DNA of 42,015 nucleotides from a virus. Lineage: Duplodnaviria > Heunggongvirae > Uroviricota > Caudoviricetes. Of the stretch, positions 3,239 to 7,846 are shown piece after piece (positions within the stretch are counted from its first letter, which is position 1; each line of letters starts with the position of its first letter). The stretch lies in IMG/VR virus record IMGVR_UViG_2537562195_000009; one strand, written 5' to 3'. The translations under genes and the position numbers were made by a program. The notes under the pieces were generated by a model. That model saw nothing but the letters and a program-made list of their open reading frames with translations, was not told the DNA's origin and did no database searches.

Positions 3239-3601
3239 TTAACGACCTGCTGCGCGGAGTTTTCCGTCAGGTTCACCGGCAAGAGTCAGTAATTGTCCCT
3301 GGTCTTCCTGCAGAATAGTCAGGCGACCACCGCGATTGACATACATCGGCGTTTCGGTGGTGTCTTCTTCGGAAATTTTCCCGCGGTTAGTCGGGCGGAC
3401 ATATGAGAGTTTGTGTTTGATTTTCACACGGTTCTCATCAAACGGTTCGATTTCCAGATTGAGTGAGACCTTCCCTTTGGTTTTCGTGTTCATCACACCG
3501 GAAGCGACTTCACTGAGAACTGCGCCGATTTTGGTTTCAAATACGCCGCCGTCCAGCTCCCCGATAAATGCCTGCACATCAGTACTGCGTTCGCTAGCCA
3601 T
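3239..3601 (-). CDS. hypothetical early protein (YfdP-like)
   Basis: Longer ORF 3239..3919 trimmed to third ATG (MASERSTDV...) which has a GAGGAG RBS; 120 aa. Confidence 0.5.
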   Translation of the reverse strand: MASERSTDVQAFIGELDGGVFETKIGAVLSEVASGVMNTKTKGKVSLNLEIEPFDENRVKIKHKLSYVRPTNRGKISEEDTTETPMYVNRGGRLTILQEDQGQLLTLAGEPDGKLRAAGR

Positions 3602-4038
3602 TTTGCTGCTCCTCATCATATCGACCCTGCAAGGTCGGTTGGTTTCTCCACAAAACAGAGAAGAACACCTGCGGTGGCAGCCGCCCGGATGGATTGGGTT
3701 ATGAGCCCGTCGTCCGGTGATGCTCTTCTCTGTTTTGTAAAAAGAGCGGTACCAGCCGGAAGCAAGGGTACAAACTGGTACAGCCAGGACTACACACAGC
3801 ATAAAGTTGTGGTGCCGGGTGCCTCCCGGTGCCTGGCGAAGGTTGCACACCAGGCGGGTGGGTATCCACAGAAGGTCGACTGTCAGCCTCAACCTTAACC
3901 CGCGTGCGCTGAGCCGCATTCACCACAACGCTAAGGATTCTCTCTGGTTGAAAATACTTAGCTGTTATGTGCCTGTCTTTTCACCACTTCAGGCTCGGTG
4001 GTATCCTTTTAAGCCCGTATACATAAAAGGAAAATCAA

Positions 4039-4284
4039 ATGACTTTTGATGAAAAAGAACTTGATAATGCAATTAATAAAATCATCGTAACGTCGCTCTT
4101 TTCCTGTCTCAGCGACACTCAGCAGAAACAGTTCTACGAATCGGCTTTCAACATGATCGAGCGTTGTTGTTTCTGCGATGCCGACGAGTTACCTGAAAAA
4201 ATCAGGAAACAGTTGGCTGATGCTCTTCGAGTGCGACTTTCTGACCAATTTTCTGAAATGTACTCTCCGAATTTGGACAAATAG
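4039..4284 (+). CDS. hypothetical protein (81 aa), opposite strand to the early-left operon
   Basis: ORF with AAGGAAAA upstream of ATG; acidic, helical-looking product; overlaps 3' end of the convergent ORF 4202..4477. Confidence 0.4.
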   Translation: MTFDEKELDNAINKIIVTSLFSCLSDTQQKQFYESAFNMIERCCFCDADELPEKIRKQLADALRVRLSDQFSEMYSPNLDK

Positions 4285-4477
4285 AAAAAGGCCATTTCCA
4301 TTCAGGGTCTGATGGAAAGACTTCAGCCTGTTCCAAAGCACGGCGTAAAGAGAATACAACTCCAGCCATAATCTGATGTTTCCCATTGGTCCAGCTATCG
4401 CCGCTCTGATCTACAGGAGCGGCTATGTCGTATGACCAAACGACTTCATCACTATTGTTTAAAATCTGGACTTTCAT
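4202..4477 (-). CDS. hypothetical protein (91 aa)
   Basis: ORF with GGAGG upstream; in line with the leftward early operon. Confidence 0.4.
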   Translation of the reverse strand: MKVQILNNSDEVVWSYDIAAPVDQSGDSWTNGKHQIMAGVVFSLRRALEQAEVFPSDPEWKWPFSICPNSESTFQKIGQKVALEEHQPTVS

Positions 4478-4485
4478 TTTGTTCT

Positions 4486-4689
4486 TTAACCTCCAGATTT
4501 CCGCGCATCTAAAGGCGCATTCTCATTTGGTGTGAACCGAATAGTTGTGCTGCTATTGATTAATGCCCCGACACACAAGACTACGCACTCAGAGCAGATA
4601 GCAACTTCATCTTTTCCGCCTTTGGCGATGATTTTTTTTGCCTGCAGCTCGTTTGCGCCACAAAACGAGCATGTGAAATAACGGTTCAT
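4486..4689 (-). CDS. ClpX N-terminal zinc-binding-domain-like small protein
   Basis: MNRYFTCSFCGANELQAKKIIAKGGKDEVAICSECVVLCV closely mirrors the ClpX zinc-binding domain (CSFCGK...KLIAG...YICDECVDLC); start chosen at second ATG with AGAGAG upstream. Confidence 0.65.
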   Translation of the reverse strand: MNRYFTCSFCGANELQAKKIIAKGGKDEVAICSECVVLCVGALINSSTTIRFTPNENAPLDARKSGG

Positions 4690-4874
4690 TTGCGCTCTCT
4701 TACACATAGTATTTAACGAATCATCCGGTCATTCATACGCCACCGGCGGCTACTTCGTGGGCGTCCTGCCTGTTCGTTTTTGACATTTACTGACTGCTTA
4801 CGACACATGCACCGTGTTGCAACCAGATTTTGTTGTAATCCTGTAGTTGGTCTGGAACAAAAGATAAAATTAAA

Positions 4875-4911
4875 TTGCGAGATATGCAAGTGATATTTGC
4901 GAGATATGCAA
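4875..4911. promoter_or_regulatory. candidate OL operators: two copies of TTGCGAGATATGCAA spaced 22 bp
   Basis: Exact 15-bp direct repeat at 4875..4889 and 4897..4911 in the region between cI and the leftward early genes; TTGC..GCAA dyad ends. Confidence 0.5.
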
Positions 4912-4965
4912 ATTTATAGGTAATAAAAAGCCACCTTTCGGTGGCCGATGGATGGGATATTGAGG

Positions 4966-5658
4966 TTAATTATGTCTCTTAAGGGTTTGCGACTGACTGA
5001 TTAAGACCTTTCCAAAGACCATGAATCGGTGTTCGTTTTCGCTAGTAATTCCCCATTCACGGTAAATCTGGTTATCAGAAATCACCAGCAGTTTGTCAGG
5101 AATCATTTGAAGTCTTTTAACGTATATTTTGTCATCAAAACCAAAGACATATATACCATCACCATCAAACTGATTGATGCTGACATCAACGAAGATGAGA
5201 TCTCCGGGCTCAATGGTTGGACACATACTGTCCCCACGAACGTTGATAACTTTGATGTGATTGGCTGGTCGTCCGCCGAACATTGATACAGCATTATCAG
5301 TTCTGTATTCGATGGCATGAATCACATCAATGACATCACCGCCCTGGATAAGGCCATTTCCCGCACTGGCACTGATATCCAGCATTTCAATACGGAACAC
5401 ATCCTTCACCTGCGCAACATCCTCATTATTACTGTTTTTATATACAGTATTACTTTTGTGGGCAGAGGTAAAGAGATCAGCAATATCAACACCTAAGCTC
5501 CTGGCAATATTACTCAGTGTTTGTTCGGTAAATTGTTTTTGCTTACCCGTTTCTAAGCGCGAGATGTTCGCCGCATCTACTCCTATCGCTTCAGCGAGAT
5601 CGGCGATTTTCATGTTCTTCGCTTGGCGAAGTTGTCTGACTCGGTTTCCTATGTTCAT
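4966..5658 (-). CDS. cI: CI-type repressor (XRE HTH N-terminal plus S24 LexA-like peptidase C-terminal)
   Basis: 230 aa; N-terminal HTH (IADLAEAIGVDAANISRLETGK); C-terminal S24 fold with VRGDSMCPTIEPGDLIFVD and KIYVKRL; divergent from a cro-like gene. Confidence 0.85.
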   Translation of the reverse strand: MNIGNRVRQLRQAKNMKIADLAEAIGVDAANISRLETGKQKQFTEQTLSNIARSLGVDIADLFTSAHKSNTVYKNSNNEDVAQVKDVFRIEMLDISASAGNGLIQGGDVIDVIHAIEYRTDNAVSMFGGRPANHIKVINVRGDSMCPTIEPGDLIFVDVSINQFDGDGIYVFGFDDKIYVKRLQMIPDKLLVISDNQIYREWGITSENEHRFMVFGKVLISQSQTLKRHN

Positions 5659-6904: not shown

Positions 6905-7846
6905 ATGAGCACTAAATTAACCGGCTATGTATGGGATGGTTGCGCTGCGTCAGGCATGAAATTATCCAGCGTGGCAATTATGGCCCGCCTGGCTGATTTC
7001 AGTAATGACGAAGGTGTGTGCTGGCCATCAATTGAAACCATTGCCCGTCAGATTGGCTCGGGGATGAGTACCGTCAGAACGGCTATCGCACGGCTGGAAG
7101 CAGAAGGCTGGTTAACGCGTAAGGCGCGTCGCCAGGGTAACCGCAATGCGTCGAATGTTTATCAGCTTAACGTTGCGAAGCTTCAGGCAGCGGCATTTTC
7201 TCAACTGTCAGATTCTGACCCGTCAAAATCTGACGCATCAAAATCTGACCCGTCAAAATTTGATGCGTCGAAATCTGGCAAAAAAGCGGGTTTTCACCCG
7301 TCAGAATCTGGCGGGGATCCGTCAGTAAAATCAAAACATGATCCGTCAGATAAAAAAACTTCTCGTCCGGACGCTTCGCAACCGGACACGCAGACGGCTG
7401 AACAGGAGTTTTTAACTCGCCATCCTGATGCGGTTGTATTCAGCCCTAAAAAGCGCCAGTGGGGAACGCAGGATGATTTGACCTGCGCACAGTGGCTCTG
7501 GAAAAAAATCATCGCCCTGTACGAGCAGGCCGCCGAATGTGACGGCGAGGTGGTTCGTCCCAAAGAACCGAACTGGACAGCCTGGGCAAACGAAATTCGC
7601 CTGATGTGTGTGCAGGATGGTCGTACTCATAAACAAATCTGCGAGATGTACAGCCGCGTCAGCCGCGATCCGTTCTGGTGCCGTAACGTGCTCAGCCCGT
7701 CGAAGCTGCGGGAAAAATGGGATGAGCTTTCCCTGCGCTTATCGCCGTCCGTCAGCACGTACACCGAAAAACGCGAAGACCCGTACTTCAAATCCAGTTA
7801 CGACAATGTGGACTACAGCCAGATCCCGGCAGGATTCAGGGGGTGA
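6905..7846 (+). CDS. replication initiator (lambda O-like) with internal origin repeats
   Basis: 313 aa; N-terminal HTH-like region (SIETIARQIGSGMSTVRTAIARLEAEGWL); central SK(S/F)D(P/A) peptide repeats encoded by DNA iterons; GAGGT RBS. Confidence 0.7.
   Translation: MSTKLTGYVWDGCAASGMKLSSVAIMARLADFSNDEGVCWPSIETIARQIGSGMSTVRTAIARLEAEGWLTRKARRQGNRNASNVYQLNVAKLQAAAFSQLSDSDPSKSDASKSDPSKFDASKSGKKAGFHPSESGGDPSVKSKHDPSDKKTSRPDASQPDTQTAEQEFLTRHPDAVVFSPKKRQWGTQDDLTCAQWLWKKIIALYEQAAECDGEVVRPKEPNWTAWANEIRLMCVQDGRTHKQICEMYSRVSRDPFWCRNVLSPSKLREKWDELSLRLSPSVSTYTEKREDPYFKSSYDNVDYSQIPAGFRG
7214..7273. repeat. iteron array (4 x 15 bp, with degenerate copies to about 7350), candidate replication origin
   Basis: tctgacccgtcaaaa / tctgacgcatcaaaa / tctgacccgtcaaaa / tttgatgcgtcgaaa in tandem inside the O-like gene, then further CCGTCAGA-containing copies and an A-rich stretch. 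Confidence 0.6.

Follow-up and report, generated by a model that had tools for sequence, protein, structure and literature searches.

A Stand-Alone Homologue of the ClpX Zinc-Binding Domain Encoded by an Optional Early-Left Gene of a Lambdoid Prophage

Introduction

Host ATP-dependent proteases are modulated by several small phage inhibitors: lambda CIII acts on FtsH, T4 PinA and T7 gp4.5 act on Lon, and RexB stabilizes lambda O against ClpXP. CIII is encoded in the pL operon of lambda and RexB between cI and pL, and small modulators of host proteases are a known theme of this genomic neighborhood. Some of the Ira anti-adaptors are encoded in horizontally acquired regions. For the N-domain of ClpX, an isolated zinc-binding domain (ZBD) supplied in trans was reportedly used by Wojtyra et al. 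in 2003 as an experimental competitor of the N-domain site.

The docking of adaptors and substrates, lambda O included, on the ClpX ZBD, from which an earlier note on the locus described here had started, is established (PMC3983244, PMC7804408). In detail, one hydrophobic site of the N-domain binds lambda O, MuA, UmuD, and FtsZ as well as the SspB and RssB tails (PMC3983244, PMC7804408), and lambda O, trigger factor, SspB, and RssB share a hydrophobic pocket of the N-domain dimer that includes F16 and I46 (PMC7804408). Filling of the pocket in trans by the SspB XB peptide inhibits the degradation of lambda O and FtsZ by ClpXP (PMC3983244). It is the axial channel of ClpX that reads the lambda O degron itself, and the N-domain only tethers the substrate (PMC12723719).

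In this study, a small gene of the ClpX ZBD type was analyzed in a viral DNA of 42,015 nucleotides (IMG/VR record IMGVR_UViG_2537562195_000009), which as a whole is referred to as the window. A literature search on stand-alone ClpX zinc-finger proteins found no functional study, and the annotation phrase occurred in one paper, which set aside a contig bearing the domain.

Results

The ZBD Gene and Its Start Codon

The window represents a lambdoid E. coli prophage of the e14/SfV/SfII/ST64B type. It begins with the integrase, excisionase, HD hydrolase, YfdQ, YfdP, and ZBD genes, then carries cI and cro, followed by a YmfL-type CII-like gene, a DUF4222 gene, and the gene of an O-like initiator, and later by PerC, Dam, RusA, and KilA-N and then the morphogenesis genes. 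The features around the ZBD gene are listed in Table 1.

Table 1. Coordinates of the ZBD gene and its surrounding features in the window.
Feature	Position	Strand	Remarks
CDS of the stand-alone ClpX-type ZBD protein, 67 aa	4486..4689	minus	ATG at 4689; TAA stop at 4486-4488
Conserved ZBD core, residues 4-46	4552..4680	minus	Ligand cysteines, F9, and C-terminal hydrophobic helix; from Pfam, alignment, AF2, and Foldseek
Variable tail, residues 47-67, predicted disordered	4489..4551	minus	From AF2 pLDDT and tail diversity among subtypes
Six extra codons of the 73-aa model, carrying the Shine-Dalgarno sequence	4690..4707	minus	Sequence here unrelated in other subtypes
Three-helix leader RNA, 68 nt	4713..4780	minus	Covariance model 96.6 bits; single copy in the window
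Putative pL	4861..4889	minus	-35 TTGCAT at 4889..4884, 17-nt spacer, -10 TATCTT at 4866..4861; read by eye, by analogy with pR
oL, two 15-bp operator-like repeats TTGCATATCTCGCAA	4897..4911 and 4875..4889	.	Resemble oR half-sites
Rho-independent terminator of the cI transcript	4929..4946	minus	7-bp stem with 5 GC pairs, T run; annotated in SfII too
CI-type repressor	4966..5658	minus	Pfam HTH and Peptidase_S24; 99.6% identical to SfII CI
Next gene, 91 aa, phrog_3195	4202..4477	minus	Starts 8 nt past the ZBD stop, behind GGAGG

Two start codons were considered for the gene. The 67-aa product is MNRYFTCSFCGANELQAKKIIAKGGKDEVAICSECVVLCVGALINSSTTIRFTPNENAPLDARKSGG, while the program-made ORF and the RefSeq PGAP model start six codons earlier, at ATG 4707, and give 73 aa. 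The Shine-Dalgarno sequence GAGAG lies 5 nt upstream of ATG 4689, and none was found before ATG 4707. Further, MN(R/S/N/H)(Y/L)(F/Y)TC is the N-terminus in all homologues of the ZBD gene, which fall into three subtypes with unrelated 5′ UTRs. Because of the single Shine-Dalgarno sequence and the homologue N-termini, the 67-aa form is likely the product of the gene, as judged from the sequence, and the six extra codons are probably untranslated 5′ UTR.

An identical gene is named “ClpX C4-type zinc finger protein” in RefSeq (WP_250559297.1), and a PHROG scan placed the protein in PHROG 5259, a family without assigned function. The homology call of the earlier note is correct, yet it is already annotated in RefSeq.

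Domain Identity and Predicted Fold of the ZBD Protein

The zf-C4_ClpX family of Pfam (PF06689) matched residues 12-46 of the 73-aa form, corresponding to profile positions 2-34 of 39, and scored 41.3 bits (E 1.4e-10; gathering cutoff 27). Consistently, phmmer against the PDB sequences returned the E. coli ClpX ZBD entries 2ds5 (E 1.4e-4) and 1ovx (E 2.2e-4), and then full-length ClpX chains. The NCBIfam ClpX equivalogs NF003745 and TIGR00382 scored 26.6 and 24.0 bits vs. cutoffs of 359 and 371, respectively, with the match confined to the first ~50 profile positions, and the 67-aa protein carries no AAA+ module.

The structure was modeled by AF2 from a 12-sequence alignment as a single-chain monomer, with moderate confidence; the pLDDT was about 80 over residues 1-45 and below 50 for residues 52-67, a tail that is predicted to be disordered. 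The seven best Foldseek matches in the PDB were six ClpX ZBD crystal chains (2ds5, 2ds6, 2ds8, and 2ds7), 2ds8 being the ZBD-XB complex, and the integrative ClpX-ClpP model 9a5x. On the crystal chains, the model gave an rmsd of 1.8-2.0 Å over 41-45 columns, a target-normalized TM of 0.71-0.75, and a probability of 0.99-1.00, so the predicted structure is a treble-clef fold superposable on the solved ZBD structures.

The candidate zinc ligands are C7, C10, C32, and C35 (codons 4669-4671, 4660-4662, 4594-4596, and 4585-4587), which, as C7-x2-C10 and C32-x2-C35, align with C14, C17, C36, and C39 of ClpX and are invariant in the phage family. The equivalent of ClpX F16, F9 in the phage protein, is kept and invariant as well. 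At two other pocket positions of ClpX, Y34 and I46, the phage protein has the alanines A30 and A42, and relative to ClpX it bears a 3-residue insertion after the I-A-K-G strand; because of these differences, its partner specificity may differ from that of ClpX. The identity to the E. coli ClpX ZBD is about 37%.

Taken together, the sequence comparisons and the predicted structure confirmed that the ZBD protein is a free-standing homologue of ClpX's N-terminal zinc-binding domain without the motor. The earlier note had read it as such a homologue lacking the AAA+ module, and this reading was borne out by the Pfam, phmmer, and Foldseek matches, by the length and the low equivalog scores, by the four cysteines and conserved motifs that line up with the ClpX N-domain, and by the ClpX-type zinc-finger fold that the prediction recovered.

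Family, Selection, and C-Terminal Tails

The phage ZBD family is small and enterobacterial. The motifs C-S-F-C-G, K-I-I-A-x-G, and I-C-x-E-C-V-x-x-C, which are conserved in the ClpX ZBDs, are invariant in it, and the full set of invariant residues comprises M1, N2, Y4, T6, C7, S8, F9, C10, G11, A12, E14, K19, I20, A22, K23, G24, A30, I31, C32, S33, E34, C35, V36, V37, C39, V40, and N45. Between the subtypes, synonymous sites of the core were saturated at a dN of 0.16-0.27, and dN/dS was 0.11-0.25 wherever dS could be estimated, which indicated that the ZBD gene is real and that its core is under purifying selection. As a separate observation, a 1-nt frameshift near the start of the gene, with loss of the first zinc knuckle, was present in 5/83 loci (L054-L058, all on IMG/VR prophage contigs), indicating that the gene occasionally decays in prophages.

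Among the subtypes, the C-terminal part is exchanged, giving proteins of 57-67, 101-127, and 121 aa (57 to 127 aa overall). On the three subtypes, Pfam zf-C4_ClpX scored 37.3 and 40.4 bits, which pass the cutoff of 27, and 26.2 bits for the 121-aa form, just under it. The long C-terminal extensions matched no Pfam domain, and the PHROGs returned only families of unknown function for them; AF2 modeled the long tail as a disordered linker followed by a weak, low-confidence helical hairpin. Because these extensions vary, specificity may lie outside the ZBD.

Exhaustive HMMER searching across 1.84 billion representatives showed that next in proximity came mostly proteins of 2-4 tandem ZBD units rather than ClpX. 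These distant relatives (P0016, P0018, and P0025-P0047) are for the most part uncharacterized multi-ZBD proteins without AAA+, one of which, of 2505 aa, has 22 matched stretches. A one-genome-per-species scan for relatives gave just 4 weak matches, in Clostridia or Terriglobia. Other phages also have small stand-alone ZBDs, for example the 65-aa protein of Pseudomonas phage PP9W2. From the identity of ~37% to the ClpX ZBD and the multi-ZBD repeats as nearest outside relatives, sequence comparison indicated that the phage ZBD is an old free-standing lineage and not a recent capture of the 5′ end of a host clpX.

Position in the Early-Left Operon

The cI terminator separates cI from the ZBD gene. 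The two oL repeats overlap the putative pL, and the ZBD gene is the first ORF of that transcript. TTGC-N7-GCAA sites related to the TTGCATATCTCGCAA repeats are present between cI and cro, and SfII keeps both repeats with one base differing in the first copy. A consensus promoter scan did not call the putative pL. In Salmonella phages 118970_sal3 and F1055, as at 80 IMG/VR loci, the repressor gene has a homologue directly downstream of it, and these homologues are the first ORF behind at least 8 different operator/promoter (immunity) types. The order of cI terminator, operators, pL-like promoter, leader, and ORF, together with the same position of the homologues, upholds the placement in an early-left operon that the earlier note had given, and we infer that CI should silence the ZBD gene in the lysogen.

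A coupling of the ZBD gene to the following 91-aa phrog_3195 gene was rejected, each being found without the other. No strong intrinsic terminators demanding antitermination were found within the early-left operon, and PADLOC gave no match at E ≤ 0.1 for the ZBD protein or its neighbors. Elsewhere in the window, a program-made ORF of 226 aa at 3239..3919 (minus) joins the YfdP-like gene (3239..3601) and an upstream frame, and the latter is a frameshifted pseudogene according to PGAP in the identical prophage of NZ_CP045209.

A Leader RNA Between pL and the ZBD Gene

The leader RNA listed in Table 1 is kept behind every immunity type examined. The repressor gene and a pL-like promoter always lie just upstream of it, and the first genes that come after it vary. 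It is present in 1386/5426 complete E. coli genomes (26%), about ten times more commonly than the ZBD gene, and is unannotated in 53 phage records. Its carriers include ST64B, SfII, SfV, SfIV, mEp460, mEp237, SPN3UB, phiNP, YeP1-3, and ZF40, and also an Aeromonas phage and T5-like Providencia phages (besides the window, loci L002, L003, L004, L010-L089, and L092-L099).

In the proposed structure, P1 is a closing helix (AACGAA/UUCGUU), P2 a short hairpin (GGC[AGGAC]GCC), and P3 a hairpin CCGGU[GGCRUAYGAAnn]ACCGG, and the two single-stranded junctions, CACGAAGUAGCC and AUGA, are conserved. Across 19 distinct sequences, 93.6% of cells were paired and 11/14 pairs showed double compensatory changes, P2 being supported by one compensatory pair type only; 0/500 shuffles reached this covariation, and slid controls paired 19-43%. 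The Providencia and Aeromonas copies were recovered at 69 and 63 bits by a covariance model from whose construction they had been left out. Folding of the single sequence was unexceptional (z-score -0.29), with an MFE structure that differs from the covariation-supported one except in P1.

The covariance model found nothing in HK022 or Rac, Rfam gave no match to the leader RNA at E ≤ 10, and a literature search with its core sequence returned only unrelated human gene primers. Homology to HK022 putL was rejected, as there was neither sequence similarity nor a covariance-model match in HK022. The place just after pL in phages without a recognizable N protein suggests a cis-acting leader, and a put-like, anti-Rho, or translational role is our speculation. 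The leader RNA is independent of the ZBD gene, for which it is context only; as a common, unannotated structured RNA at the early-left start of many temperate phages of enterobacteria, it may hold wider interest.

Two further observations were made near this RNA. In ST64B (L092, 2565..3190) and phiNP (L093, 2565..3370), ~600-800 nt of G+C-rich sequence follow the leader RNA and precede the YfdP-like gene, with no annotated gene and short ORFs only; this stretch could be a non-coding RNA or hold unannotated small genes. In the window, the reverse complement of P2 with an A-run (4757..4773, plus) reads as a weak terminator facing a convergent 81-aa ORF (4039..4284), probably incidentally, since the A-run is specific to the immunity type of the window and is not conserved in others.

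The ZBD Gene as an Optional Cassette

The ZBD gene is present in 131/5426 complete E. coli genomes, in 98 of them nearly identical. From 4715 through cro and further on, the window and Shigella phage SfII share 98.7% identity, with identities of 99.6% for cI, 100% for cro, 98.4% for the CII-like gene, and 98.4% for the O-like initiator. The ZBD gene is absent from SfII, where about 45 nt stand in the place of the ORF, followed by a truncated homologue of the next gene. Elsewhere, homologues adjoin replication modules whose similarity to the O-like protein is absent or only about 30%, and at several loci the replication proteins are unrelated or undetectable (L059-L061, L066, L070, L030, L032, and L062). 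No co-variation of the ZBD gene with any candidate client in the phage was found.

In the Pfam scan, the initiator, encoded at 6905..7846 (plus), matched HTH_36 and, weakly, DnaD_N but not Phage_rep_O, so only its role is O-like. The HTH_36 lies at its N-terminal end, a low-complexity linker (DPSKSDASKSDPSKFDASKS) is present, and the N-terminus MSTKLT only loosely recalls the N-motif-1 degrons of lambda O and Dps.

The earlier note had proposed that a decoy domain could protect this initiator from ClpXP or otherwise retune the protease. A dedicated protection is not supported, as SfII keeps the initiator without the ZBD gene and homologues stand beside unrelated replication modules. By the same SfII comparison and homologue neighborhoods, a coupling to the O-like initiator or to a single immunity type was rejected. 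Based on the absence from SfII, the frequency of the gene relative to the leader RNA (131 vs. 1386 genomes), and the varied replication modules, the ZBD gene is an accessory, optional cassette, neither an N-like essential regulator nor tied to the O-like initiator.

Discussion

The best explanation that can be offered for the ZBD protein, on sequence and model grounds and held only tentatively, is a trans-acting mimic or competitor of the ClpX N-domain. It is favored by the domain and its predicted fold, the conserved motifs, the F16 equivalent, and the purifying selection, and by the place as first ORF behind the pL of at least eight immunity types, which is an early and high-level position. 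The alteration of ClpXP specificity that pocket occupation in trans by the XB peptide does bring about, and the recurrence of small stand-alone ZBDs in other phages, point the same way. Against a mimic of the host domain stand the limited identity to ClpX and the nearest outside relatives, which are multi-ZBD proteins and not ClpX, and the lack of co-variation with any candidate phage client also speaks against it.

As a competitor, the ZBD protein would be made early after induction or infection from the pL transcript, would fold and presumably bind zinc like the ClpX N-domain, would probably dimerize through its hydrophobic C-terminal helix, and would keep part of the hydrophobic docking site. 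It may then compete with the ClpX hexamer's own N-domains for proteins that need to dock on them, both the tails of SspB/RssB-type adaptors and substrates tethered by the N-domain (for example initiators, transposase-like assemblies, FtsZ, and UmuD), or it may alternatively pair directly with a ClpX N-domain. Overall, ClpXP substrates would shift transiently during early lytic development, probably in a direction that leaves ssrA-type degradation unblocked, and the role would be an accessory fitness function rather than an essential step of the phage cycle. A more far-reaching and more doubtful proposal is that the protein is the first natural virus-borne detached copy of a host unfoldase docking domain, a pL-expressed decoy that would switch off adaptor- and tether-dependent ClpXP activity in the first minutes, keep ssrA control intact, and by its tails give different alleles different clients.

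Other explanations were weighed against the same evidence. The treble-clef finger may have been re-used for a partner, protein or nucleic acid, outside ClpXP biology, with the likeness to ClpX reflecting common descent; the diverged pocket positions and the inserted loop, the closest non-family relatives being tandem ZBD repeat proteins of unknown role, and the versatility of treble-clef fingers as binding modules would all fit, but the residues most conserved in true ClpX ZBDs are invariant here too, and we regard such a re-use as unlikely. It is improbable that the protein is a recruiting adaptor, whose ZBD would join the ClpX N-domain layer by heterodimerization or docking and whose variable tail would capture a target to deliver or shield it. 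The constant 45-residue core with swapped C-terminal modules (57 to 127 aa in total) matches how tethering adaptors are built, and the long tail is predicted to be helical after a disordered linker; however, the 67-aa form has just a 20-residue tail that is predicted to be disordered, and the tails match no Pfam family and have no identifiable target. Subunit exchange would also run counter to the high stability of the ClpX ZBD dimer.

A Kil-like division modulator, in which the ZBD scaffold would bind FtsZ and delay division early in lytic growth independently of ClpP, appears distinctly improbable. The degradation of FtsZ does require the ClpX N-domain and is blocked when the SspB-binding site is occupied (PMC3983244), and in mEp237 a protein annotated as Kil occupies the slot immediately after this leader RNA. 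However, a slot shared among mosaic phages is weak evidence, PHROG and Pfam scans gave no similarity to Kil proteins, and an isolated ZBD is not known to bind FtsZ. The first place after pL, immediately downstream of a structured RNA, would also suit an N-like transcription factor acting with the conserved leader RNA from the N position; that reading is very improbable and is largely refuted by the distribution, as the RNA is found in 1386/5426 E. coli genomes and the gene in 131, the RNA occurs without the gene in SfII, ST64B, SPN3UB, ZF40, and others, and the protein has no arginine-rich motif.

For the competitor explanation, the value lies in the hypothesis and not in the homology call, the gene being an already catalogued accessory phage gene. 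General retuning of ClpXP, the wider proposal of the earlier note, is plausible, and the protein is small, easy to purify, and amenable to ClpXP assays that already exist; for comparison, SfII serves as a natural knockout phage, and tail variants also occur naturally. If the ZBD protein is a competitor, it would modulate ClpXP as a genetically encoded factor selective for substrate class, and domain mimicry of a docking module would join the known ways in which phages manipulate host proteolysis.

Compared with known systems, the closest likeness is to the ClpX ZBD itself, with which the phage protein shares the C4 treble-clef, the four cysteines, the F16 equivalent, the C-terminal helix, and the motifs C-S-F-C-G, (K/R)-(I/L)-I-A-G, and I-C-x-E-C-V-x-L-C; it differs in being phage-encoded and pL-expressed, in its more hydrophobic helix and variable tail, and in not being fused to an AAA+ module. 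YdaE of the Rac prophage, which is annotated as zinc-binding, is likewise a small cysteine-rich protein from the early-left region of a lambdoid prophage, and it was rejected as a relative because BLASTP gave no alignment at E ≤ 100. This different small zinc protein, the YdaE type (C-x2-C ... C-x3-C ... DQMAHE), is found repeatedly close to where the early-left operon begins in other lambdoid phages (SPN3UB, L095, 2731..2889; mEp237, L099, 2939..3100; Rac, L005, 6839..7009), its homologues lying just after Kil in SPN3UB and mEp237, directly so in mEp237.

Functionally, IraP, IraD, and IraM, the E. coli anti-adaptors, are also small proteins that retune the substrate choice of ClpXP and leave the protease active site untouched, whereas they bind the adaptor RssB and are unrelated to the ZBD in sequence and fold. 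CIII, RexB, PinA, and gp4.5 are similar as small phage proteins modulating a host ATP-dependent protease, but they have no sequence or fold relation to the ZBD protein and none copies a domain of its target protease. In its proposed mode, occupation or duplication of the docking site leading to altered ClpXP substrates, the phage protein would most resemble the SspB XB peptide (PMC3983244) and the isolated ZBD supplied in trans; in contrast to these laboratory reagents, it would by analogy be the natural version.
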